Below, in pieces: positions 41,175 through 55,546 of a DNA stretch of 64,000 bases (the stretch's first letter is position 1; the number at the start of each line of letters is the position of its first letter). The notes under the pieces are model-generated. The model did no database searches, was not told the origin of the DNA, and worked only from the letters and a program-made list of their open reading frames with translations. Both the position numbers and the translations under genes were made by a program. Location: assembly GCA_963717935.1 (NCBI GenBank), contig CAVQXP010000004.1:96001-160000 (forward strand), written 5' to 3'. The DNA comes from Candidatus Eiseniibacteriota bacterium (GTDB lineage: Bacteria; Eisenbacteria; RBG-16-71-46).

Positions 41175-44100
41175 CTACTTCTCTTCCGCCGGCGCGCCCG
41201 CGCCCGCTTCGCCTTCGGCCTTGGGAATCGTGAGCCCCGCGAGGTGCTGATAGACCGCGTAGCGCTGGGTCGTCTCCATCTGTGCCTGCGCCATCAACTG
41301 CTGGAACCGCTTCGGATCGAGCTTCTCGACCATGCGGAAGCGGGTCTCGTTCTTCGTGAAGTCGCTGACCCGCGCCCCCGTCGGCTGCACGTCAAGGATC
41401 AGCGGAGGCTGTCCCTCGGCGATCCGCCGTGGATCGAACCGGTAGAGCGGCCAGATGCCCGCCTCGACGGCGAGCTTCTGATGCTGGCAGCCGTCGACCA
41501 GGTCGTAGCCGTGGGCGATGCAGTGGCAGTAGGCGATGATCAGCGAGGTCCCGGGGTACGAGTCGGCTTCCATGAACGCCCGCACCGTCTGCTGGTCCCG
41601 CGCGCCGATCGCCACCCGCGCCACGTAGACGTGGCCGTAGCTCATGGCCATCATCCCGAGGTCCTTCTTGCCGAGGCCCTTGCCCGCGGTGGCGAACTTC
41701 GCCGCCGCGCCCATCGGCGTCGCCTTCGACGCCTGCCCGCCCGTGTTCGAGTAGACCTCGGTGTCGAGCACCAGGAGGTTGACGTTCCGGTTCATCGCCA
41801 GGACGTGGTCGAGGCCGCCGTAGCCGATGTCGTAGGCCCAGCCGTCTCCGCCAACCCCCCAGACGCTCTTCTTCACGAGGTAGTCGGCGATCGCCTCGAG
41901 TCGCCGAGCCTCGGGGTCGGGAAGGGACGCGAGCTTCGTCCGCAGGACCGCGACCCGCTCCCGCTGCTGGCGGATCCCCAGCTCGCCGTCCTGATTCGCC
42001 TCGATCAACGAGGTGACCAGTTCGTCGCCGAGCCTGCCGGCGAGGTTCCGCAGGAGGTCGTGCGCCAGCCGTTGCTGGGCGTCCACCGCCAGGCGGAAGC
42101 CGAGGCTGAACTCGGCGTTGTCCTCGAAGAGCGAGTTGGACCAGGCCGGTCCGCGCCCCTCGTGGTCCACCGCGTACGGCGCCGTCGGCAGGTTGCCACC
42201 GTAGATCGACGAGCAGCCGGTCGCGTTGCCGATGAGCGCCCGGTCGCCGAAGAGCTGCGTCAGGAGCTTCACGTACGGCGTCTCGCCGCAGGCCGCGCAG
42301 GCGCCCGAGTACTCGAAGAGCGGCCGGAGGAACTGCGACCGCTTGCTGTCGGCCTTGATCTTCGTCCGGTCCGGATCGGGCAGCCCGAGGAAGAACGTGT
42401 AGTTCGCCGCCTCCGCTTCCCGCAGCGGCATCTGCGGCGCCATCTCCAGCGCCTTGTGCTTCGGGTTGCTCTTGTCCTTGGCGGGACAGACCTCGACGCA
42501 TATGCCGCAGCCCGTGCAGTCCTCCGGGGCGACCTGGAGCACGTACTTCATCCCCTTGAAGTCGCCGGCCTTGTAGTCGATCGACTTGAACGTCGGCGGC
42601 GCGCCGTCGAGCAGGCCCGGGTCGCAGACCTTCGCGCGGATGGCCGCGTGGGGACAGATGAGCACGCACTTGTTGTCCTGGATGCAGACCTTCTCGTCCC
42701 AGACGGGGATCTCGATGGCGATGTTCCGCTTCTCCCACTGGCTCGTCGCCGTGGGCCAGGTGCCGTCGGGGGAGAAGGCGCTGACGGGCAGCGAGTCGCC
42801 CTGCTGCTCGATGATGACCGCCGACACCTTCTTGACGAAGTCGGGGGCCGACTCGGAAACGATCGCCGGGCGGCCGCGGGTGGCGGTGACCGCCGCCGGC
42901 ACGCGGACCTCGTGCATGTTGGCGAGCGTCTCGTCCACGGCGGCGTGGTTCTTCTGGACGACCTCCATCCCCTTCCTCGCGTAGGTCTTCTCGATCGTCT
43001 TCTTGATCTTCGCGATGGCTTCCTCGGGGGGCAGGACACCGGAGACCGCGAAGAAGCAGGTCTGCATGATGGTGTTGATGCGTCCGCCCATCCCGGTCCT
43101 CTTGGCCACCTCGATCGCGTCGATCACGTAGAACTTCAGCTTCTTCTCGATCAGGTCCCGCTGGACCTCGCGCGGCAGGTGGTTCCAGACCTCGTCCTTA
43201 CCGAAGGGCGCGTTGAGGAGGAAGATCCCGCCCGGCACCGCGTAGCCGGTCATGTCGTACCGCTCGAGGAACGAGAACTGGTGGCAGGCGACGAAGTTCG
43301 CCCGCTTGATCAGGTACGTCGAGCGGATCTTCCGGGGCCCGAAGCGCAGGTGCGAGATCGTGACCGCGCCAGCCTTCTTCGAGTCGTAGACGAAGTAGCC
43401 CTGCCCGTCGTTCTCCGTCTCCTCGGCGATGATCTTGATCGAGTTCTTGTTCGCCCCCACGGTGCCGTCGCTGCCGAGCCCGAAGAACACGCCGCGGACC
43501 ACGTCGGCCGGCTCCGTGTCGAACTCCGGGTCCACCGGCAGCGAGAGGTGCGTGACGTCGTCGACGATGCCGACGGTGAAGTGCACCCGGGGCGCCGGCT
43601 TCGCCAGATCGTCGAAGACCGCCTTGACGCAGGCCGGCGTGAATTCCTTGGAGGACAGCCCGTAGCGGCCGCCGACGACCCGCGGATCCGCCGCGAAGGG
43701 CGAGAAGCCGGCGTCCTTCGCCTCGCGCAGGGCCGCCAGCACGTCGAGGTAGAGCGGCTCCCCGACGGCGCCCGGCTCCTTCGTCCGGTCGAGCACGGCG
43801 ATCGACTTGACGCTCTTCGGCAACGCGGCGATGAACTGCCGGGTCGCGAAGGGCCGATAGAGCCGGACCTTCAGCATCCCCACCTTCTCGCCCTTCGCGA
43901 CCATCCAGTCGACCGTCTCGTGCGCCGTCTCGGCGCCCGAGCCCATCAGGATGATCACGCGCTCCGGCGCGGGATGCCCGACGTAATCGAACAGGTGGTA
44001 CGCCCTTCCGATCCGCCCGGCGAACTCGTCCATGGTCTGCTGGACGATCTCGGGGCACCGGTCGTAGAAGAGGTTGCACGCCTCGCGCGCCTGGAAGAAG

Positions 44101-44774
44101 ACGTCCGGGTTCTGCGCGGTACCGCGCAGGACGGGACGGTCCGGCGTCAGGGCACGCTCCCGGTGCTCCCTGACGAGCGCGTCGGGGATCATGAAGCGCA
44201 GGTCGTCGTCGGTCAGCAGCTCGATCTTGGCGACCTCGTGCGAGGTCCGGAAGCCGTCGAAGAAGTGCAGCAGCGGGACGCGCGAGCGCAGCGTCGCCGC
44301 CTGGCCGATCAGGGCCATGTCGTGCGCCTCCTGGACCGAGCCCGAAGCGAGGAGCGCGAAACCCGTCTGCCGGCAGGCCATCACGTCCGAGTGGTCGCCG
44401 AAGATCGAGAGCGCGTGCGTGGCCACGGTGCGGGCGGCGACGTGCATGCAGTAGCTCGACAGCTCCCCACCGATCTTGTACATGTCCGGGATCATCAGCA
44501 GCAGCCCCTGCGCCGCCGTGAACGTCGTGGTCAGCGCCCCGGCCTGCAGCGCCCCGTGGACCGCCCCCGATGCGCCCCCTTCCGACTGCATCTCGATGAC
44601 GTCCGGGATGGTGCCCCAGATGTTGCGGCGCCCGAGGGCGGACCACTCGTCGGCCCATTCCCCCATGTTCGAGGACGGGGTGATGGGGTAGATGGCGATG
44701 ACCTCGTTCGTACGGTGGGCGACCGACGCGGCCGCCTCGTTGCCGTCTATCGCGACCAACGATCTTCCTGCCAT
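41175..44774 (-). CDS. nifJ: Pyruvate:ferredoxin/flavodoxin oxidoreductase
   Basis: DGNEA, IYPITPSS, QSEGGA, GLGSDGTVG, ATGCSSIYGG, GGDGWAYDIG; 1199 aa; AGGAGG RBS. Confidence 0.98.
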   Translation of the reverse strand: MAGRSLVAIDGNEAAASVAHRTNEVIAIYPITPSSNMGEWADEWSALGRRNIWGTIPDVIEMQSEGGASGAVHGALQAGALTTTFTAAQGLLLMIPDMYKIGGELSSYCMHVAARTVATHALSIFGDHSDVMACRQTGFALLASGSVQEAHDMALIGQAATLRSRVPLLHFFDGFRTSHEVAKIELLTDDDLRFMIPDALVREHRERALTPDRPVLRGTAQNPDVFFQAREACNLFYDRCPEIVQQTMDEFAGRIGRAYHLFDYVGHPAPERVIILMGSGAETAHETVDWMVAKGEKVGMLKVRLYRPFATRQFIAALPKSVKSIAVLDRTKEPGAVGEPLYLDVLAALREAKDAGFSPFAADPRVVGGRYGLSSKEFTPACVKAVFDDLAKPAPRVHFTVGIVDDVTHLSLPVDPEFDTEPADVVRGVFFGLGSDGTVGANKNSIKIIAEETENDGQGYFVYDSKKAGAVTISHLRFGPRKIRSTYLIKRANFVACHQFSFLERYDMTGYAVPGGIFLLNAPFGKDEVWNHLPREVQRDLIEKKLKFYVIDAIEVAKRTGMGGRINTIMQTCFFAVSGVLPPEEAIAKIKKTIEKTYARKGMEVVQKNHAAVDETLANMHEVRVPAAVTATRGRPAIVSESAPDFVKKVSAVIIEQQGDSLPVSAFSPDGTWPTATSQWEKRNIAIEIPVWDEKVCIQDNKCVLICPHAAIRAKVCDPGLLDGAPPTFKSIDYKAGDFKGMKYVLQVAPEDCTGCGICVEVCPAKDKSNPKHKALEMAPQMPLREAEAANYTFFLGLPDPDRTKIKADSKRSQFLRPLFEYSGACAACGETPYVKLLTQLFGDRALIGNATGCSSIYGGNLPTAPYAVDHEGRGPAWSNSLFEDNAEFSLGFRLAVDAQQRLAHDLLRNLAGRLGDELVTSLIEANQDGELGIRQQRERVAVLRTKLASLPDPEARRLEAIADYLVKKSVWGVGGDGWAYDIGYGGLDHVLAMNRNVNLLVLDTEVYSNTGGQASKATPMGAAAKFATAGKGLGKKDLGMMAMSYGHVYVARVAIGARDQQTVRAFMEADSYPGTSLIIAYCHCIAHGYDLVDGCQHQKLAVEAGIWPLYRFDPRRIAEGQPPLILDVQPTGARVSDFTKNETRFRMVEKLDPKRFQQLMAQAQMETTQRYAVYQHLAGLTIPKAEGEAGAGAPAEEK

Positions 44775-45084
44775 GAACTCCTCCTGGTGAGCCGGGGAAC
44801 CGAAGGCGCCCTTCTCAAGGGCTTGCCGCCCGGGCGCACGGCGCCCGCTCCACCCCACCCCGGGCCCGGCGTGAGACGTAGCAAGCAGCGCAGGCACCTG
44901 CGCGCGCGCGGTGCGGATCGATCGCATCCGGCCCCCCTCTCGGGCCGACGACGCTCACGATGCCGCACCTCAATGTTTTCGAGTGGACTGCGTGACCCGA
45001 ACCTGCTGTCAGGACATGCTGCTACAGCAGCAGCGCGGTTCGTCGGCCGCACGCTGCCTGCCCTGATCCGAGTTACCGACGCGT

Positions 45085-45230: not shown

Positions 45231-46679
45231 TCAGGCTCGCGCGGGTCCCCGCGCCCCGGCGGCGGCGGCGCCCTCCCCCGCCCGCAACAGCCCCGGCCGC
45301 GCGATGAGCAGGACGGCCCACGCCAGCAGCAGCACCGCGCCGACGAGCACCGCGCCCGCGGGACCGATCTTCTGGCCGAGCGATCCGGAGAGGATGCTCG
45401 AGATCGGCATCATGCCCATGAACGCCAGCACGAACAGCGCCATGACGCGGCCGCGCAGGTGGCCCGGCACCGCCATCTGGATCGACGTGTTGGTCAGCGA
45501 ACTCGAGGCGAGCAGCGCCGCGCCCGCGAACGTCGAGAGCGCCAGGGTGAGGGGCAGCCAGCGCGACAGCGCGAAACCGACGAGCAGCACCGCGAGCGCC
45601 GCGAGCGTGAACGGGATGACCCGATCGCGCCGCAGCGTGGCCGGCATGCCCGCCACGGCGAGCGCGCCCACCAGCGCGCCCAGGCCGTTCGCCGCCATCA
45701 CGAACGCCACCGCCCGCGACAGGCCGTTGCCCGAGAGGCCGAGCGACGTGCTCACGATCGCCGGGAGCAAGGTCAGGTAGGGGAACGCGCAGATGGTCAT
45801 GACGGCGGTGCTGAGGATGAGCAGGCCGACGACGCGATCCTCGCGCGCATAGCGCAGACCGGCGGTCAGCATGCGCCAGGAGCCTTCCCGCCAGCCCGGC
45901 GGGCGGGCGCGGTCGGCGGCCCCGGCCGCGGCGTGGGGCCCTCCGGGATCGGAGGCGGAGCGCAGCCGGATCGCCCGGAGCGCCGCGATGACGAAGAGGA
46001 AGCTCGCCGCGTTCACGTAGAAGACCTCGCCCATGCCCGCGCCCGCGAGCACGAGAGCCGCGGCCGCGAGCGGCCCGAGCAGGCGCGCGGACTGGAACTG
46101 CACCGAGCTGAGGGCGATGCCGTTCATGAGCAGCCGCCGCGGCACGAGGTCGGGCAGCATGGACTGGAACGCCGGCGCCATGCACGCCATGAAGATGCCG
46201 CCCACGAATCCGAGCAGCGAGATGCGGACCAGCGAGCCGACCGGATCGCTGGAACCCAGCAGGCCCGCGTTGTAGAGGACACCGAGTGCGGCCGCCTGCA
46301 GGAGGAGCACGACCTGGATCAGGATCAGCAGCTTGCGGCGGTCCACGCGGTCGGCGATCGCGCCGGCGGGCAGGGCGAGGAAGAGCACCGGGATGCCCGC
46401 GAGGAAGTTGACGAGACCGAGATCGAACGACGACTTGCGGAAGTTGAAGACGACGATCCCGAGCGCGTACATCTGCATCCACGTGCCGATGTTGCTCACC
46501 AGCGCGCCGAGCCAGAAGAGCGTGAAGTCGCGGTACTGGAACGACTCGAAGGTCCCGCGCTGCCGGCCCACGGTCTGCGGCGGGGCCTCGACGTCGGCCT
46601 CCAGCGTCAGGGTCTGCTCTTCGGCGGACCCGGCCCAGACCGGAGCGTCCACCCCGGCGGGCTTCCTCTCGTCCGTCAT
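45231..46679 (-). CDS. MFS transporter (MFS_3-type)
   Basis: FTLFWLGALVSNIGTWMQ, ADRVDRRKL, RGRVMAL; same family as 11097-12374. Confidence 0.9.
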   Translation of the reverse strand: MTDERKPAGVDAPVWAGSAEEQTLTLEADVEAPPQTVGRQRGTFESFQYRDFTLFWLGALVSNIGTWMQMYALGIVVFNFRKSSFDLGLVNFLAGIPVLFLALPAGAIADRVDRRKLLILIQVVLLLQAAALGVLYNAGLLGSSDPVGSLVRISLLGFVGGIFMACMAPAFQSMLPDLVPRRLLMNGIALSSVQFQSARLLGPLAAAALVLAGAGMGEVFYVNAASFLFVIAALRAIRLRSASDPGGPHAAAGAADRARPPGWREGSWRMLTAGLRYAREDRVVGLLILSTAVMTICAFPYLTLLPAIVSTSLGLSGNGLSRAVAFVMAANGLGALVGALAVAGMPATLRRDRVIPFTLAALAVLLVGFALSRWLPLTLALSTFAGAALLASSSLTNTSIQMAVPGHLRGRVMALFVLAFMGMMPISSILSGSLGQKIGPAGAVLVGAVLLLAWAVLLIARPGLLRAGEGAAAAGARGPARA

Positions 46680-46713: not shown

Positions 46714-47439
46714 TCAGGTCGAGAACCCGAGCAGCCCGGGGTCCGGCATCATCCCGGGGCTCCAGGCATCGGGCAGGATCTCGACCTCGCAGGGTTGGTC
46801 CACCACGCTCATCGCCGCCTGCTTCACGTCCTGCGTGAGCTGGGGCGCGTACGGACAGAAGGGTGTCGTCAACAGCATCCGGACGAGCGTGCGCCCCGGC
46901 TCGATCACGATCTCGCGGATGAGTCCGAGGTCCACGACCGAGAGCTGGATCTCGGGGTCCATCACGGTCTCGAGCGCCGCGCGCACGGCGAACTCCTGCT
47001 GCGTGGGCGCGCGCGTCGTCCCCGGCGTGCCGGCCGTCGTCGCGGCCGGCGCCACCGAACGCCGCACGGACGGCTGCCCGGCGGGCGGGTTCGCGGCCTC
47101 GGCCGCCGCCTGCCTCTCGTCGCAGGTCTCGCACGCCACCTGGATCTGGTCCCCGATCACGCGCACGGCGTGGCGCGGCACCGCGCCCGTCGCCGGCAGC
47201 GCGAGCGCCGCGCCGGTGCGGATGTCGAAGCGCGCCCCGTGGCGTGCGCACTCGATGACGTGGCCGTCGAGCACGCCGTCCGACAACTCGCCGCCGTCGT
47301 GGGTGCAGAGGTCCGCGAGCGCGTAGTACTGCCCGCCGACGTGGAACACCGCGACCGGGTCGTCGTCCACGCGCACGACCTTCACCCCGCCCTCGGGGAT
47401 CTCCCCCACCTTCGCCACCGTCATGAACCGGTCACTCAC
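46714..47439 (-). CDS. Rieske ferredoxin fused to SufT/DUF59
   Basis: CTH..CARH Rieske ligands; CETC plus Ala/Pro/Thr linker; DPE..SVVDLG..TTPFCP DUF59 motif; GTGA overlap with sufU. Confidence 0.9.
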   Translation of the reverse strand: MSDRFMTVAKVGEIPEGGVKVVRVDDDPVAVFHVGGQYYALADLCTHDGGELSDGVLDGHVIECARHGARFDIRTGAALALPATGAVPRHAVRVIGDQIQVACETCDERQAAAEAANPPAGQPSVRRSVAPAATTAGTPGTTRAPTQQEFAVRAALETVMDPEIQLSVVDLGLIREIVIEPGRTLVRMLLTTPFCPYAPQLTQDVKQAAMSVVDQPCEVEILPDAWSPGMMPDPGLLGFST

Positions 47440-47843
47440 GCCGTCTCCTCCTCCTCGCCGGGCCACTGGGTGATGCCGTAGGCGCCCGCCTTCAGGGTCT
47501 TGAGGGCCAGCAGCGCGCACTTGAGGCGCACCGGCCCGAGCTCGATGCCCAGCAGTTCGAGCACGTCCTCGCGCGTGAGCGCCTTGACCTCCTCGAGCGG
47601 GCGGCCCTCCATGCGCTCGCACAGCATCGAGGCCGCGGCCTGGCTGATCGAGCAGCCGTGCCCGGAGTGGCGGATCTGCTCGATCTTCCCGTCCTTCAGG
47701 GCGATGTCGATGCGCAGCTGGTCGCCGCAGAGCGGGTTCGCGTCCTCGTAGGTGATGTCGGGATGCTCGAGCGTCCCGCGGTTCCGCGGGTGCTTGTAGT
47801 GGTCGAGGATGTTCTCGCGGTACAGTTCGTCCCATTCGCCCAT
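47436..47843 (-). CDS. sufU: SufU / NifU-N-like sulfur-transfer protein
   Basis: LYRENILDHYKHPRN, NPLCGD, GCSISQA, RLKCA. Confidence 0.95.
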   Translation of the reverse strand: MGEWDELYRENILDHYKHPRNRGTLEHPDITYEDANPLCGDQLRIDIALKDGKIEQIRHSGHGCSISQAAASMLCERMEGRPLEEVKALTREDVLELLGIELGPVRLKCALLALKTLKAGAYGITQWPGEEEETA

Positions 47844-49117
47844 CAGCCGAACACCCTGCGCGCGTGGTGGAGCCCCTCGACCAGGGCGTCCACGTCCTGT
47901 GGCACGCTGTAGCAGTGGAACGAGGCGCGCGCCGAGGCGTGCACGCCCAGACGTTCGTGCAGCGGCATGGCGCAGTGGTGGCCGGCGCGCACCGCGACGC
48001 CGCGGTGGTCGAGCACCGTGGCCACGTCGTGCGGATGGATCTCGCCGAGCTCGAACGCCACGACCCCGCCGCGCTTCTCCGCCGGAGGCCCGAGGATGCG
48101 GAGGTCGGGCACCTCGCGCATGCGCTCGAGCGCGTAGGCCGCCAGCTCACGGTCGTGCTCGAAGATCTGCTCCATCCCCAGCTCCTCGCAGAACGCCACC
48201 GCCGCGCGCAGGCCGACCGCCTCGGCGATGGGCATCGTGCCGGCCTCGAACTTCCAGGGCAGCTCGTTCCACTTCGAGCCCTCGAGCTTCACCTCGCGGA
48301 TCATCTCGCCGCCACCCAGGAAGGGCGGCATGGCCTCGAGCAGTTCGCGCCGCGCCCAGAGCGCCCCGATGCCCGTGGGCCCGAGCATCTTGTGCCCGGT
48401 GAGCGCCAGGAAGTCGCAGCCCAGCGCCTTCACGTCCACCGGCATGTGCGGCACGCTCTGCGAGGCGTCCACCAGCGTGAGCGCGCCCGCGGCGCGGGCC
48501 TGTCGGGCGATCTCCTCGACCGGGTTCACCGTGCCGAGCACGTTCGAGATGTGCACCACGCCGACCAGCCGCACACGGCCGTCGGCCAGCAGGCCGGGCA
48601 GCGCCTCGAGCTCCAGCTCGCCCGAGTCCGTGACCGGGATGAAGCGCAGTTCGATCCCGCGCTCCGCGGCCAGGACGTGCCACGGCACCAGGTTCGAGTG
48701 GTGCTCCATCACCGTGAGCAAGACCGCGTCGCCCCGCTTCAGCGCCGAGCGCCCCCAGGCGTAGGCCACCAGGTTGATGGCCTCGGTGCTGTTGCGCGTG
48801 AAGATCACCTCGCGAGCCGGCGCGCCGATGAAGCGCGCGAGCCGCGCGCGGGCGTCCTCGTAGGCGGCGGTCGCCTCCTCGGCGATCGCGTAGATGCCAC
48901 GGTGGATGTTGGCGTTGTAGCGGCGGTAGTAGTCGTCCATCGCCGCGAGCACGCTCTCGGGCTTCTGGGAGGTGGCGGCGCTGTCCAGGTAGACGAGCGG
49001 CGGTTCGCGCCGGGCGGTGAGCAGCGGGAAGCGCCCGCGCACCTCGCGCGGATCGAAGCGTCTGCGGCTCGTGGCCGGAGCGGTCGTGGTCCCGGCCGGC
49101 GGTGTCGACACGGTCAC
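47843..49117 (-). CDS. sufS: Cysteine desulfurase
   Basis: YLDSAATSQKP, EHHSN, TGHKMLGPTGIG, RAGHHCA. Confidence 0.97.
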   Translation of the reverse strand: MTVSTPPAGTTTAPATSRRRFDPREVRGRFPLLTARREPPLVYLDSAATSQKPESVLAAMDDYYRRYNANIHRGIYAIAEEATAAYEDARARLARFIGAPAREVIFTRNSTEAINLVAYAWGRSALKRGDAVLLTVMEHHSNLVPWHVLAAERGIELRFIPVTDSGELELEALPGLLADGRVRLVGVVHISNVLGTVNPVEEIARQARAAGALTLVDASQSVPHMPVDVKALGCDFLALTGHKMLGPTGIGALWARRELLEAMPPFLGGGEMIREVKLEGSKWNELPWKFEAGTMPIAEAVGLRAAVAFCEELGMEQIFEHDRELAAYALERMREVPDLRILGPPAEKRGGVVAFELGEIHPHDVATVLDHRGVAVRAGHHCAMPLHERLGVHASARASFHCYSVPQDVDALVEGLHHARRVFG

Positions 49118-50464
49118 CTATCCGATCTTGGCCTGGATCACCCCGCGCAGTCGCTCGCGCACGCTCTCGAGCGGGATGCGGTCCAGGACCGGTGCGAAGA
49201 ACCCTTCGACGACGAGGCGCTGGGCGTCGTTGCGGGGCAGCCCGCGCGTCATGAGGTAGTACATCTGCTCGGCGTCCACCGTACCGACGGTCGCCCCGTG
49301 CGTGCAACGCACGTCGTTGGCCAGGATCTCCAGGCCCGGGATGCTGTCCGCGCGCGCCGTCCCCGACAGCAGCAGGTTGCGGTTGGCCTGGTAGGCGTCG
49401 GTGCGCTGCGCTCCGGCCGCCACCTGGATCATGCCCTGGTAGACGCTGCGGGACCGGTCCTTGAGCGCGCTCCGGATGTGCAGGTCGCTGGTGGTCTGCT
49501 CGGCCAGGTGCTTCTGCAGGGTGTGCAGGTCGAAGTGCTGGCGCTGGTCGCCGAACATGAAGCCGTGCACGTAGGCCTTCGCTCCCGCTCCCACGAGCTG
49601 GAAGTAGGAGTTGGTCTTGGTCATCCTGCCACCCAGGAAGGTCTGGATCCACTGCAGCTCGCCGCCGCGCTCGATGCGCGCGCGCTGGTTCGAGTAGTGG
49701 AAGACGTTCCGGCCCCAGTCCTGGAGATGGCCGTAGACCAGCTTCGCGTCCTCGCCGACGAACACCTCCGTGCCGCCGCTGAAGAACGCGGGGCCCTCCG
49801 CCGTCTCGGAGAGGCACTCCTCGAGCACCGTGGCGCTCGCGCCGCGGCCCAGCACGATGACCGTCGCCGGCGCACCGGCGACGCCCGCGCCGTCCAGCCA
49901 CTGGACGAGGCGGATCGGCAGCCCGGCCCGGACGCCGTCCGGCACCCAGACGAACGCGCCGCCCGCGCGCATCGCCTGGTGCAGCGCGGCGTAGCGGTCG
50001 AGGTCGGTCTCGATGAGCGCATGGAGCCGGCCCTGGAGCTTGTCGGCGTGCTCGCGCAGCGCGCGCTCCATCGAGCAGACGATCACGCCCTGCTTCGCCA
50101 GCGCCGGGTGCGTCCGTTCCAGCACCACCTCGCTGTTGCGCTGGACCAGCAGACCGAGGTTCGACGCCTCCCCCGCCAGACGCGCGATCACGGCGGGCGG
50201 CAGGTCGTCCACGTCGCGGGCCTTCAAGCCCGGCGCGAACGGGTCCAGCTCACCCAGCGTGAGCGCGCCGAAATCGGTGCGCCGCCACAGTTCGAGCCGC
50301 CGGTCCGGGAACGCCAGCCGCGCCGCGATCCCGGCCGCCGCCCGCCGCTGCTCCAGAGCCCAGTCCGGCTCGTTCGCGCGCACGGCGCGCTCCAGCGCCA
50401 GCGCGGGCCAGGCGTCGAACCCGCCCTCCACCGGCCTCGTCGGGGTCCGCGTGTCGGCCGTCAT
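49118..50464 (-). CDS. sufD: Fe-S assembly protein SufD
   Basis: ELWRRT, beta-helix, AQRTDAYQ.NRNLLLS, PGLEILANDVRCTHGAT. Confidence 0.95.
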   Translation of the reverse strand: MTADTRTPTRPVEGGFDAWPALALERAVRANEPDWALEQRRAAAGIAARLAFPDRRLELWRRTDFGALTLGELDPFAPGLKARDVDDLPPAVIARLAGEASNLGLLVQRNSEVVLERTHPALAKQGVIVCSMERALREHADKLQGRLHALIETDLDRYAALHQAMRAGGAFVWVPDGVRAGLPIRLVQWLDGAGVAGAPATVIVLGRGASATVLEECLSETAEGPAFFSGGTEVFVGEDAKLVYGHLQDWGRNVFHYSNQRARIERGGELQWIQTFLGGRMTKTNSYFQLVGAGAKAYVHGFMFGDQRQHFDLHTLQKHLAEQTTSDLHIRSALKDRSRSVYQGMIQVAAGAQRTDAYQANRNLLLSGTARADSIPGLEILANDVRCTHGATVGTVDAEQMYYLMTRGLPRNDAQRLVVEGFFAPVLDRIPLESVRERLRGVIQAKIG

Positions 50465-52890
50465 CCTACCGAGCCCTCCATCTGGAGCTGGATGAGGCGG
50501 TTCATCTCGACCGCGTACTCCATCGGCAGCTCCTTCACGACCGGCTCGATGAAGCCGGCGACGATCATCGCCGCCGCCTCGTCCTTGGGCACGCCGCGGC
50601 TCGTCAGGTAGAAGAGCTGTTCGTCGCCGATCTTCGAGACCGTCGCCTCGTGGCCGATCGAGACCTGGTCCTCCTCGATCTCCATGGTCGGGTAGGTGTC
50701 CGAGCGCGAGGTCTCGTCCAGGATCAGCGCGTCGCAGTTCACCGTGCTGCGGCAGTCCACCGCGCCCTTGACGACCTTCACGAGCCCGCGGTAGCCGGCC
50801 CGCCCGCCGTCCTTGCTGATGGACTTCGAGACGATCTTGCTGGTGGTGTTGGGCGCGGCGTGCACCGCCTTCGCCCCCGCGTCCTGGTGCTGGCCCTTCC
50901 CCGCGAAGGCGATCGAGAGCACCTCGCCGTGCGCCCCCGGCTCCATCAGGTAGATCGCGGGGTACTTCATCGTGAGCTTGCTGTTGTGCACCACGAAGCC
51001 GTTGGCCACGAAGTTGTGCGTCCCTTCGATCTCGATGTCCCAGGTGTCCTGGACGTCGAGCATCTCGATGGCCGAGACGCGGCTGAAGTACACAGGCTGC
51101 TCGAGGCGACCCTCACCGAAGTAGAGGAAGTAGTGCGTGTACTCCTTCTCCTCTTTCCCGAGGGGCTTCCTCTCGACGCGGCTCCAACGGCTGATCTTGC
51201 GCGGATCGAGGCCGCAGGCGATGGCCAGGGCCTTCACATCCTCCAGCAGAGGGCGATTGACGCTCGTGATGGAGATGTTCTTGTGATTCGCGCGGAAGTG
51301 CCCGTCCGCGGCGACGTAGCCCTCGATGAACGCGAGCCGCTGCTCGCGGGGGAGCTGATACACCCACGCCGGCACGCGCTTCTCATGCGCCCTGCCAGCG
51401 AAGCCGAGGTGCATCAACCAGTCTCTCAGCAGCACCGAGTTGACCCGGATCACGCCCCGGCGAACCTCGAGGTCGACGCCAAAGAGTGCGGCCAGCGATT
51501 CCAGGACCCGGGTGTGCGACTTGTCCGCGGGCGGCACAGCGAAGTACACACGGTTGCGCTCCGCATACCCATCGCCCACGTAGACACCCAGGAGCCACAT
51601 CAACTCCTCGGTGCTCGATTCGGGCAGCGTGACCGGCTTCGTTCCGTGGTTCGGGATCGGTTCGAACGCCTTCGCCTTGCCGTGGTCCGGCAGGGTCCCG
51701 GAAATCGCCACCAGGTCCTTCGTGGTCAACTCGTCGAGTTGCTTCCAGGCCAGCGCGACGTGTTTGCCCTGCTTGGTGAGGGCCAGGAATGGGTGGTTGG
51801 CCGTGGCCCTGACCTCCCGGTGGTTCTCGGTGCGCAGCAGGTACACCTGCTGCCGCCCGCTGAAACGCTTGGCCAGCACCGGACGGCGCTGCCACTGCAT
51901 GTCATCTCCAAGTGAATAGACCATCGCGCCCGGCTCGATCCGCTCGATCGGCACGACGTCGTTGTTCACCAACACGCCGGAGTCCCCGGTCAGGCACCCC
52001 AGATTCCCGTCGACCCACTCCATGGTCGCGTCACGGTAGGCGGCGGCGCGCTTGGTCACCAGGTTGTAGACGTTGTTCGACCAGTTCTGGATGGTCGTGT
52101 AGCGGCAGCGCCCGCCGGCCTTGACGATGATCTCGACCACCGCCGAGTGCAGCGAGTCGCTCGAGTAGGTGGGCGCGGTGCAACCCTCGACGTAGTGCAC
52201 GTAGGCGCCCTCGTCCACGATGATGAGCGTGCGCTCGAACTGGCCCATGTCCCTGGTGTTGATGCGGAAGTAGGCCTGCAGCGGGACGTCCACGCGCACG
52301 CCCTTCGGCACGTAGATGAACGAGCCGCCCGACCAGACCGCGGAGTTGAGCGCCGCGAACTTGTTGTCGGTCGGCGGGATCACCGTGCCGAAGTACTGCC
52401 TGAACAGCTCCTCGTGGTCGCGCAGCGCGTGGTCGGTCGAGAGGAACAGCACGCCCAGCTTCTCGAGGTTCTCCTTGATCTTGTGGTAGACCACCTCGGA
52501 GTCGTACTGCGCGCCGACGCCCGAGAGGAACTTCTGCTCGGCCTCGGGGATGCCCAGCCGGTCGAAGGTGCGCTTCATGTCGGCCGGCACGTCCTCCCAG
52601 GACTTGGCCTCCTGCTCGGTCGGCTTGACGTAGTAGTAGATGTCGTCGAAATCGATCTGCGAGAGGTCGCCGCCCCAGCGGGGCAGGGGCTTCCTGCGGT
52701 AGGTCTCCAGCGCCTTGAGCCGGAACTCCAGCATCCAGGCCGGCTCGCCCTTCATCAGCGAGATCCCCCTGACGATCTCGGGGTCGAGGCCCTTGCGCGC
52801 CTTGAAGACGAACTGGTCGGCATCGTGGAAGCCGTACTTCTCCGTGTAGCTGTCGCGGATGCCTCCGGTGGGGCTCTCCGAAGCGGTCAT
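50461..52890 (-). CDS. sufB: Fe-S assembly scaffold SufB, intein-containing
   Basis: [40 protein letters not shown]; 471 aa after removing the intein. Confidence 0.97.
50983..51996 (-). mobile_element. Intein with LAGLIDADG homing endonuclease (338 aa)
   Basis: [65 protein letters not shown]. Confidence 0.97.
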
Positions 52891-53690
52891 CGCGTCGCCG
52901 ACTCCTTCCCTTCGCGGACGAAGTCGTAGCCGCGGCTCTCCAGCTCGAGCGCCAGCTCCGGGCCGCCCGACAGCGTGATGCGTCCGTCCAGCAGGACGTG
53001 GACGAAGTGCGGCTTGATGTAGTCCAGGATGCGCTGGTAGTGCGTGATCACCAGCACGCCGAGGTCCGGCCCCGAGAGGGCGTTCACGCCCTCGGAGACG
53101 ATGCGCAGCGCGTCGATGTCGAGCCCCGAGTCGGTCTCGTCCATGATGGCGATCTCGGGCTTGAGCATCGCCATCTGCAGGATCTCGGTGCGCTTCTTCT
53201 CGCCGCCCGAGAAGCCGTCGTTCAGGTAGCGCAGGGCGAACGATTCGTCCATCTTGAGCAGCGCCATGTGCTCGCGAAGCAGCGCGCGGAACTCCTTGGG
53301 GGCGATGCCGCGCTTCGCGGGCATGGAGCCGTCCGTGGCGGCCGTGCGCGGAGCGAGCCGCGCGTTGAGCGCGGTGCGCAGGAAGTTGGAGACCGTCACG
53401 CCGGGGATCGCGACCGGGTACTGGAAGGCCAGGAACAGTCCGGCGCGCGAGCGCGCGTCGGACTCCAGTCCGAGGAGGCTCTCGCCCTTGAAGAGGATGT
53501 CGCCGCCGGTCACTTCGTAGCGCGGGTGTCCCATGAGCGTGTTCGCGAGCGTGCTCTTGCCCGAGCCGTTCGGCCCCATCAGGGCGTGCACCTCGCCCTT
53601 GCGCACCTCGAGGCTCAGGCCCTTGAGGATCTCCTTGCCCTCCACCGCGACGTGGAGGTCCTTCACGACGAGATCGGCTGTCTGGCTCAT
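52887..53690 (-). CDS. sufC: Fe-S assembly ATPase SufC
   Basis: [36 protein letters not shown]. Confidence 0.97.
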
Positions 53691-53737
53691 GTCCGGCCCT
53701 GCTCCTTCTTCGTTCAGGCCGCTCGCGGCCCGGGTCT

Positions 53738-54292
53738 TCACTGGATCTCTTCGACGCTCACGAACACCGGGTGCGAGCGTCGCGGGCCGCGGCCCGGCGA
53801 CGCGCTCTTCAATCCGGCCACCAGCGCCGGCGCCTGCTCCATCCCGTGGTCCTGCTGGCAGCCCACGCAACCCTTGGCCGTCGAGGCCGGGGCCGCGCAG
53901 ACGCGGCAGGCTTCGAGGTACGAGAGCCCGGCGGCCAGCTCGTGCTCGAGCTGCCGGGAGCGCCGCACCGCTTCACGCGTGTCCTCCAGCTTGCGCTTGA
54001 ACAGCGAGCGCAATTGGTCCATGGCCTCGGGGCCCAGCCCCGCGTCCCACCAGGCGTGGACCAGCTCGCGCATCTCCTGCAGCGAGAAGCCCATGCCGTT
54101 GAAGAGCTCGATCCAGCGCACGCGCTCGGCCGCGCTCGGCTCGTAGAGGCGGAAGCCGCCACTGGTGCGCGAAGCGGGCTGGAGGAGTCCAAGCTCCTCG
54201 TACAGGTGGATGGCCCGGACGGTCTTGCCCGTCAATCGGGCCAGATCACCGATGCGCAGGAGCCTGGGTGCTCGGGTCAGGTTGGTCGTCAT
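53738..54292 (-). CDS. MerR-family regulator with C-terminal four-Cys motif
   Basis: [37 protein letters not shown]; coiled coil; CRVC-x9-CVGC-x3-H. Confidence 0.92.
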
Positions 54293-54487
54293 CAGTCACA
54301 CCCTTACGTACGCGTTAGATTCGACTCGCAAAGTAAATGATTCAAAAGGATATTTCAATCCTGGAACCCGTGGGTGGCGATGGGTCAGGCAGCCAGGCTC
54401 CCGAGACCAAATCTGGTCTCAATCTTGCCCGGCAAGCACCTCCGGCACCGGTGAGCACCGCTCAAACCCGTCGTCGTCCGTGGCGGA

Positions 54488-55546
54488 TCAGACCGCCCGC
54501 CGGTCGAGCTTCACGCCGTGGGCCGTGAGCCCGTCGAGCATGTGGCGGTACGCCCGCGGGTCGCGGGCCACGCGCTCGAGCGGCTGCACCCCCGGCGGCG
54601 GCACGAGCCCGCCCGCCACCATCTGCGCCGTGACCGCGGTCGTGAACGCCGTGGTCCGGGCCATGGCCGTCAGGCCCGTGGCCGGGTCGTAGCGGTCCAC
54701 CAGCGTGATCCGCTCCCCGCCGTCCGCCCAGCGCATGCGCACCAGCAGCACCACGAGGTCCAGCGGCGGGTCGAGCGTGCAGCGCGCGCGCAGCTCCTCG
54801 GCCAGCCTCCCGGCCGCGACCAGCGGCTTCACCGCCTCGGCGTGGCCCGGCCAGCGCAGCGTCTTCTCTCCCATCTCCGCCACGCCCGGCAGCGTGTCCA
54901 TGAGCGAGCGCAGTCCGTCGCTGTAGAAGGCCTCCATCTCGCCCACGCCCTCGACCGGCACGCGTTCCATGCCGCTGAAGACCGGTACGGCCACCTGCCG
55001 TCCGCCCTGCACGATGCGCGCGGGACGCACGTACTCCTCCAGCAGGTCGTCCAGCGACCAGGTCACGCAATAGCCGTAGGGCTGCGAGCGGTCCTGCGCC
55101 ACGCCACCCACCAGGATGACCAGCTCCTGCGGGGCGCCGCGCCGTGCGTACGCCTCGCCCGCCACCAGGTTCGAGATGCCCGGCGCCAGCCCCGCGTCCG
55201 GGACGATGGTCACGCCCGCCGCGCGCGCCTCGCCGTCCAGCCCGAGCGCGTCCTCGCCGCAGAAGGAGACGTCCACCAGGTTGCGCTTCGCCTCGATCGC
55301 GGCCCTCATGGCGGCGAAACCGTAGCGCGAGGGCAGCGCCCCCACCGCGAAGTCGTGCTCACCCATCAGGCGCACGACGGTCTCGGACGCCGAGCAGTCC
55401 GCCTGGCGCCAGACCAGGTTCGCGAGCGCGGGCAACCGCGGGTCGCGCACGTCGGCGACCGTGACGCGGGCCCGCGGCAGACGGGTGGCGAGATCGACGG
55501 CGATGACGCGCCCCTGCGCGCCTCCGCCCAGGACGAGGATCTTCAT
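54488..55546 (-). CDS. Saccharopine dehydrogenase-like / lysine 6-dehydrogenase family protein
   Basis: KILVLGGGAQG, DAGLAPGISN, Y.VTWS, EAFYSDGLRS, EKTLRWPGH, AMARTT. Confidence 0.88.
   Translation of the reverse strand: MKILVLGGGAQGRVIAVDLATRLPRARVTVADVRDPRLPALANLVWRQADCSASETVVRLMGEHDFAVGALPSRYGFAAMRAAIEAKRNLVDVSFCGEDALGLDGEARAAGVTIVPDAGLAPGISNLVAGEAYARRGAPQELVILVGGVAQDRSQPYGYCVTWSLDDLLEEYVRPARIVQGGRQVAVPVFSGMERVPVEGVGEMEAFYSDGLRSLMDTLPGVAEMGEKTLRWPGHAEAVKPLVAAGRLAEELRARCTLDPPLDLVVLLVRMRWADGGERITLVDRYDPATGLTAMARTTAFTTAVTAQMVAGGLVPPPGVQPLERVARDPRAYRHMLDGLTAHGVKLDRRAV

Follow-up and report, generated by a model that had tools for sequence, protein, structure and literature searches.

A MerR-family regulator with a four-cysteine tail heads suf and isc operons behind a conserved predicted operator

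We analyzed a suf operon for the assembly of iron–sulfur (Fe-S) clusters in a 64,000-nucleotide (nt) stretch of a Candidatus Eiseniibacteriota contig, hereafter called the window, with emphasis on its first gene, merR, which encodes a MerR-family protein with four cysteines in its tail. This protein belongs to a real and widespread regulator subfamily that is apparently undescribed. Because genes for its members stand first in suf or isc operons of two phyla, behind a single conserved 22-base site, the family likely represses these operons and probably senses Fe-S clusters. In the mechanism that we propose, MerR, as the product of the first suf gene, would act as an autorepressor by binding a palindrome located just downstream of the promoter. 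It would bind DNA while its four cysteines hold an Fe-S cluster produced by the SUF system, and would release the DNA once iron shortage or oxidants leave the tail without a cluster. We regard the full model of an Fe-S-cluster-sensing autorepressor on a MerR fold, the steps of which are not independent, as evenly poised between right and wrong. The window features on which it builds are the following:

53738–54292, reverse strand: merR, MerR-family regulator of 184 residues with a winged helix-turn-helix (HTH), a coiled coil and a four-Cys tail (PF00376, PF13411, PF09278)
53846–53908, reverse strand: C129-x2-C132-x9-C142-x2-C145-x3-H149, predicted cofactor site
54300–54321, no strand assigned: 22-base-pair (bp) imperfect palindrome, predicted operator of MerR, the best site in the window genome (G000) at 32.7 bits
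54330–54335, reverse strand: predicted −10 box TACTTT, 17 nt past the −35 box and beginning 14 nt ahead of the operator
54353–54358, reverse strand: predicted sigma70 −35 box TTGAAA (TTGAC consensus in relatives), its position kept in 56 of 62 loci

Orthologues of MerR were called in the window's phylum, Eisenbacteria, across a clear score gap (136 versus 72 bits), and occur in 85 of its 151 genomes. The link to suf that the initial annotation had drawn from this single locus extends to the phylum: for 80 of the 85 orthologues, a sufC gene on the same strand is found no more than 800 nt downstream. The other five comprise one whose sufC is cut by a contig end, three without a sufC match on the contig, and one, in G097, that heads an isc operon. 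In relatives, the usual order is merR-sufA-sufC-B-D-S-U-Rieske-sufT. This sufA gene, which most relatives have between merR and sufC, went unmentioned in the initial annotation, and its loss is seen solely in the window's genus-level group. The merR stop codon overlaps the start codon of the next gene in 57 of 80 GTDB loci. Some relatives carry additional genes between sufA and sufC: a small acidic protein of about 135 residues is encoded there in L005 and L011, where the merR–sufC gap is about 800 nt, and an unknown protein of about 80 residues in L037 and L038. Loci from genomes labeled “Binatia”, “Hyphomicrobiales”, “Acidiferrales” and “Limnocylindrales” at NCBI were not accepted as evidence for further phyla, because they have the Eisenbacteria-type operon.

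The isc operon of G097 (L044) reads merR-iscS-iscU-iscA-hscB-hscA-iscX, and a Polyangia record (L122) shows the same order. In Myxococcota, the phylum of the latter, the family occupies 85 places, distributed over 78 of 301 genomes, and every one of these places was fetched. Linkage to isc was borne out at 76 of these places (76 genomes), where the gene directly precedes that of an IscS-type desulfurase; one of them (L197 in G400) is a hybrid operon, merR-iscS-A-type carrier-sufB-sufC. We rejected chance or local gene order as the cause of the linkage. A quick tree of 64 rows groups the 18 suf-linked proteins on a single branch within the isc-linked diversity (95 in the SH-like approximate likelihood ratio test, SH-aLRT), which hints that the MerR gene may have moved from isc to suf. 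The initial annotation had cast the protein as filling the role of SufR with a MerR fold. The suf linkage agrees with this proposal, but the proposal is too narrow: the family also takes the slot of IscR in isc operons, and we therefore regard it as a general regulator of Fe-S biogenesis rather than merely a SufR stand-in.

The slot occupied by the family MerR is held by Rrf2 genes in sister lineages. In Eisenbacteria-phylum genomes without the MerR, an Rrf2 gene heads 16 of the 20 suf loci that were fetched (out of 34 sufC loci). Where Myxococcota genomes gave no family match (26 iscU loci), tblastn placed an Rrf2-like gene before iscS at 13 loci; of the rest, one has a diverged Cys-rich MerR, ten have no regulator and two are too short. 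The diverged Cys-rich MerR (L242 in G159) also lies before iscS, and the family operator is absent there.

An operator-like palindrome comes and goes with the MerR gene. A symmetrized position weight matrix (PWM) trained on 46 Eisenbacteria loci only, with a threshold of at least 12 bits, detected a site in 81 of 86 held-out upstream regions (the 85 Myxococcota places and L044) versus 0 of 860 shuffles, and reached a maximum of 2.5 bits across the 26 control isc loci without a family match. An IUPAC site pattern was composed after both sets had been inspected, so its counts are partly circular: when one mismatch is allowed, it is present in all 85 carriers and in five of 66 non-carriers; exact matches occur in 18 of 28 carriers, in 0 of 93 non-carriers and, in an additional set, in 31 of 50 carriers. 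Two sites, or sites that overlap by 6 nt, are frequent in Myxococcota. We rejected a Shine–Dalgarno sequence as the sole cause of this conservation, since both arms are conserved, the symmetrized PWM still detects the site, and the site lies 40–277 nt from the HTH codons. In the window, the palindrome falls within 54293–54430, a stretch that the initial annotation had named without mentioning the conserved operator itself, and it covers the likely ribosome-binding site. Taken together, these patterns make it very probable that MerR binds the 22-bp site and controls the operon. A suspected resemblance between the site and the LiuR motif was not confirmed. Separately, an inverted repeat (GAGACCA-GATT-TGGTCTC) lies at 54403–54420, about 45 nt upstream of the −35 box, and its counterpart in L002 and L003 is GAGACCT-GATT-AGGTCTC, with both arms changed; the repeat may serve as another operator, or as a hairpin that ends the upstream gene.

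The predicted promoters show a layout unlike that of canonical MerR activators. Within the window's order (families f1 and f3), 56 of 62 loci have a conserved TTGAC-17/18-TAnnTT promoter upstream of the operator, with a spacer of 17 nt in 49 and 18 nt in seven of the 62 loci and the −10 box starting 14 nt before the operator. With the −35 box at 54358–54353 and the −10 box at 54335–54330, the operator of the window would thus span about +2 to +24 of the predicted transcript. In family f7, the predicted operator instead lies inside an 18-bp spacer (22 of 26 loci). Canonical MerR activators need a spacer of 19–20 bp, as stated in section 3.2.3 of PMC11672702, and we counted 19 bp each for soxS and copA. 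Both layouts, the downstream operator and the 18-bp spacer, would fit repression, and we consider it likely that MerR represses its target rather than activating it by twisting the promoter.

The window regulator is a member of the MerR superfamily, with PF00376, PF13411 and PF09278 above cut-off over a winged HTH and a long coiled coil. In its AlphaFold model, the long coiled-coil helix comprises residues 87–131, and the Cys tail follows directly. The top structural matches from Foldseek and VIA are MerR proteins throughout, and a whole-protein search of the ESM Atlas returned generic MerR clusters only. The tail that the initial annotation described as CRVC-x9-CVGC-x3-H after the coiled coil is read here as C129, C132, C142, C145 and H149, and the four cysteines are the only ones in the protein. 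Their conservation is clear: CxxC-x8/9/10-CxxC is found in 118 of the 120 best homologues, the remaining two having a frameshift-like tail. Four cysteines are also present at 83 of the 85 Myxococcota places, with the first pair spaced as CxxxC in 13 of them. At a broader scale, 190 clusters (50% identity) reach E ≤ 1e-30 against the window MerR; the motif occurs in 116 of the 150 best cluster representatives, and much of the remainder (34) consists of apparently truncated or frameshifted sequences. The tail histidine is not universal (63 of 83 Myxococcota proteins). The closest named relatives of the protein are from Ca. Eisenbacteria, at up to 91% identity, and no named cultured host appeared among the homologue names returned by the searches.

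No described family of suf regulators matches. By domain, score and motif tests the family is MerR and not IscR/RisR, SufR or SoxR, which leaves this part of the initial annotation standing. Section 28 of the review PMC8593673 names only IscR-type and SufR-type proteins as dedicated regulators of Fe-S biogenesis and notes that the control of many suf loci is unknown. The term “MerR” has no match in the accessible text of PMC9973013 and PMC8593673, and we found no description of a MerR protein heading suf or isc in a literature search that did not extend to closed-access papers and supplements. The family most likely works like IscR, RisR and SufR, with which it shares a functional trait: its gene opens an Fe-S assembly operon and is preceded by a conserved predicted operator of its own. 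IscR of E. coli and RisR of Myxococcus xanthus likewise head isc or suf operons and have a Cys-rich C-terminus and a palindromic operator of their own. They differ in their Rrf2 fold, their three cysteines (plus a histidine in IscR) and their operator, against the MerR fold and four cysteines of the present family; the Rrf2 domain PF02082 was not matched by the window MerR in the Pfam search. Holo-RisR represses both isc and suf, according to the available text of PMC9973013. SufR, found in cyanobacteria and as Rv1460 in Mycobacterium, is described in section 28 of PMC8593673 as a dedicated [4Fe-4S] suf autorepressor with four cysteines. It differs from the family in its non-MerR HTH, its C-X12-C-X13-C-X14-C motif and its CAAC-N6-GTTG site; neither these traits nor a TIGR02702 match was found in the window MerR or the upstream DNA.

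Two further systems offer partial parallels. MliR of Bizionia is a MerR-like regulator linked to iron homeostasis. It has no effector domain and no cysteine (PMC9478572), unlike the family with its four conserved tail cysteines, and the accessible text of that paper contains “isc” nowhere and “suf” once, in the reference list. The M2 motif CX2CX7CX2C of anamorsin/Dre2 binds a [2Fe-2S] cluster in the human protein or a [4Fe-4S] cluster in the yeast protein, as reported in the accessible part of PMC8251831. This Cys spacing is near-identical to that of the family, but the protein is eukaryotic and unrelated; we draw an analogy and claim no homology.

We lean towards an Fe-S cluster, either [2Fe-2S] or [4Fe-4S], as the cofactor of MerR. 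This assignment draws on the suf and isc targets, the precedent of IscR, RisR and SufR, the cluster that SoxR carries in the same loop, the spacing in anamorsin, and the extra operator sites described below. By analogy with IscR, RisR and SufR, we infer that the holo form would be the repressor.

A PWM scan of G000 revealed just one convincing site, that of merR; the next, at 21.5 bits, falls in AT-rich DNA where the third-codon-position GC (GC3) filter used gave no gene call, and the two stand-alone A-type carrier genes of this genome have no operator site. In Myxococcota, nine extra exact sites were found. One lies across the start of the gene for an ErpA-type carrier (L285), and two precede cysteine synthases (L301, L302). 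Genes for extracytoplasmic function (ECF) sigma factors follow two others, a Crp/Fnr gene and an RpoH-like gene follow one each, and no gene was called at the last two. Control patterns matched twice in 121 genomes and not at all in 50. Among eight distal Eisenbacteria sites that were fetched, a 28.5-bit site with one mismatch (L271) overlaps the predicted −10 box of an FTR1 iron permease gene. As a set, the one-mismatch extra sites of Eisenbacteria are at chance level and were rejected as a regulon, with L271 as a possible exception. Apart from these, L300 (G362) contains a repeat of about 100 nt in two copies 1.25 kb apart, each with an operator match and without a gene call at the filter.

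Several observations weigh against an Fe-S-sensing autorepressor or narrow its scope. The locus sets overlap and the genomes are related, so the linkage counts are not independent. The partner gene of nine of the 85 Myxococcota copies encodes an ECF sigma factor instead of an Fe-S assembly protein, and five of the 86 held-out loci have no predicted operator. Only three of the nine extra exact Myxococcota sites are at Fe-S or cysteine genes, and among the matches listed for Eisenbacteria there are 15 one-mismatch extra sites compared with 17 for a reversed-pattern control. A strict consensus promoter scan, which the −10 box TACTTT fails, made no call for the window promoter, and no consistent promoter geometry was found in Myxococcota. 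Paired CxxC motifs are classic zinc sites too. Finally, MerR proteins generally remain DNA-bound with or without inducer (accessible text of PMC11672702), and release from a downstream operator would therefore be non-canonical.

Among the alternatives, the one that survives best, although we hold it to be unlikely, is a dedicated repressor that acts as a thiol/redox or persulfide switch through zinc bound to its four cysteines. Such a switch agrees equally well with the evidence from linkage and operator. The two CxxC (or CxxxC) knuckles, 8–9 residues apart, resemble zinc knuckles, and the extra sites before cysteine synthases are compatible with sulfur or redox sensing. Against it, the known dedicated regulators of this slot, IscR, RisR and SufR, bind clusters according to the accessible text of PMC8593673 and PMC9973013. 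The anamorsin-like spacing likewise binds clusters, and one extra site precedes an iron permease gene.

An Fe-S cluster could also act as in SoxR, remaining bound while its oxidation state turns a DNA-bound dimer into a twist-type activator, which seems to us quite improbable. SoxR, a [2Fe-2S] member of the MerR family (PDB: 2zhg/2zhh), has the same fold, four cysteines right after the coiled coil and a similar GTTAAC-type operator center, and its C119 and C122 align with C129 and C132 of the window protein. It ranked first in VIA-align (Z 11.6), tied with other MerR proteins, and shows a precedent for a cluster carried in this MerR loop. The operator of f7 lies between the −35 and −10 boxes, and f1 retains a weak TATGA-like remnant past the operator, both of which would suit activation by twisting. 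However, the f7 spacer is 18 bp and not 19–20, and the conserved promoter of the window's family lies upstream of the operator rather than having the operator in a 19-bp spacer. The proteins share 23% identity, the window MerR scores 38.8 bits against the SoxR model TIGR01950 (cut-off 116.9), and the family leads Fe-S assembly genes, unlike SoxR. The initial annotation had recognized that the SoxR motif is a different one, and indeed CIGCGCLSxxC is absent from the window MerR, the spacing being CxxCxC-x5-C in SoxR and CxxC-x8/9-CxxC in the family.

A CueR/ZntR-like sensor for toxic metals (Cu, Ag, Co, Cd or Zn), which would switch on Fe-S repair upon cluster damage, is distinctly improbable. 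The activators CueR, ZntR, CadR/PbrR and MerR are closest to the window protein in hidden Markov model and PDB sequence searches, with ZntR and CueR giving the top NCBIfam scores, and databases annotate homologues as “copper efflux regulator”. Yet the protein is below every cut-off, by far for ZntR (57.8 versus 167.95 bits) and CueR (57.7 versus 147.4 bits). It lacks a cysteine in helix 5, as the column of ZntR C79 at the start of that helix holds Met91, and 204 of 217 locus proteins have no cysteine in the HTH and coiled-coil core. No efflux pump is encoded by the next gene in the loci examined, and the predicted operator is of a repressor-type layout outside a 19-bp spacer.

That MerR regulates only itself or something else, with its position at suf and isc being incidental, is very improbable: ECF-linked paralogues do retain the operator without Fe-S assembly genes, but the stop/start overlap with sufA or iscS, the association with two unrelated machineries and the alternation with Rrf2 in the slot argue against it. 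These four-Cys paralogues (L166, L169 and L172–L178), identified as ECF-linked with three of the nine sigma factors scanned, often have queG, encoding a 4Fe-4S enzyme, further downstream, and fall outside the suf/isc diversity in the 64-row tree. In L283 and L284, an ECF sigma gene stands alone with an operator, and the merR-iscS locus of those genomes has none.

If the Fe-S-sensing repressor is correct, the family would add a third protein scaffold for the control of Fe-S biogenesis, beside Rrf2 and SufR. It is present in 85 of the 151 genomes sampled from the Eisenbacteria phylum and in 78 of the 301 from Myxococcota, and would at present be mislabeled as a “copper efflux regulator”. In its broadest form, a MerR dimer would take up a cluster through CxxC-x8/9-CxxC and act as an on/off repressor; it would have moved between ISC and SUF together with its operator, and its control would extend, in some myxobacteria, to the supply of cysteine, to A-type carriers and to an ECF sigma factor. 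We give this extended view about an even chance. To our knowledge, the family would then follow SoxR as the second MerR subfamily that carries an Fe-S cluster, and would be a repressing one. With a small protein and a predicted operator known to the base, the proposal lends itself to direct tests in E. coli or M. xanthus.

The remainder of the window operon, with gene families assigned with Pfam and NCBIfam, comprises:

52887–53690, reverse strand: sufC ATPase (TIGR01978, 335 bits, cut-off 213)
50461–52890, reverse strand: sufB scaffold with intein and LAGLIDADG domains (TIGR01980, 695 bits, above cut-off)
50983–51996, reverse strand: SufB intein, 338 residues, LAGLIDADG, C299–N636, Ser+1
49118–50464, reverse strand: sufD (TIGR01981, 271 bits)
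47843–49117, reverse strand: sufS cysteine desulfurase (TIGR01979, 556 bits)
47436–47843, reverse strand: sufU sulfur-transfer protein (TIGR01994, 110 bits)
46714–47439, reverse strand: Rieske ferredoxin fused to a SufT/DUF59 domain (PF00355 and PF01883)

The order merR-sufC-sufB(intein)-sufD-sufS-sufU-[Rieske-SufT] given by the initial annotation is correct, with all seven genes on the reverse strand. The junctions, described there as 47 nt followed by overlapping or abutting genes, measure 47, −4, −4, 0, −1 and −4 nt. SufB, SufC, SufD, SufS and SufU are all above their NCBIfam cut-offs, giving a SUF system with SufU. In the window genome, which is 93% complete, searches for iscU, hscB and iscX found none, and the suf operon is therefore the only scaffold system found there; Rrf2 and SufR were searched without a match, and Fur gave one weak match. 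Contigs from RNA libraries of near relatives span the merR–sufC junction (X1 record 8, X2 record 15, X3 record 21). We did not use them as evidence because they show neither a single transcript nor a transcription start site, and DNA may be present.

The Rieske–SufT fusion recurs in seven of 56 related loci, the two genes being separate in the other 49, and an assembly error was rejected on this basis. The SufB intein is inserted at GNLG|SK with Ser+1; in M. tuberculosis, the SufB intein is of the Cys+1 type and insertion sites differ between species, as reported in the accessible text of PMC8891592. Only three of 69 other related loci have a sufB of intein length, and because of this sporadic occurrence we rejected the intein as a part of the regulatory circuit. 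A major facilitator superfamily (MFS) transporter gene at 45231–46679 begins 34 nt past the Rieske–SufT gene, is seen there only in the closest relatives, and may be co-transcribed with the suf operon. Downstream of it lies a pyruvate:ferredoxin oxidoreductase-like gene (41175–44927), an Fe-S consumer named by eye. On the other side, a saccharopine-dehydrogenase-like gene (54488–55543) lies 195 nt upstream of merR and is not conserved as a neighbor.

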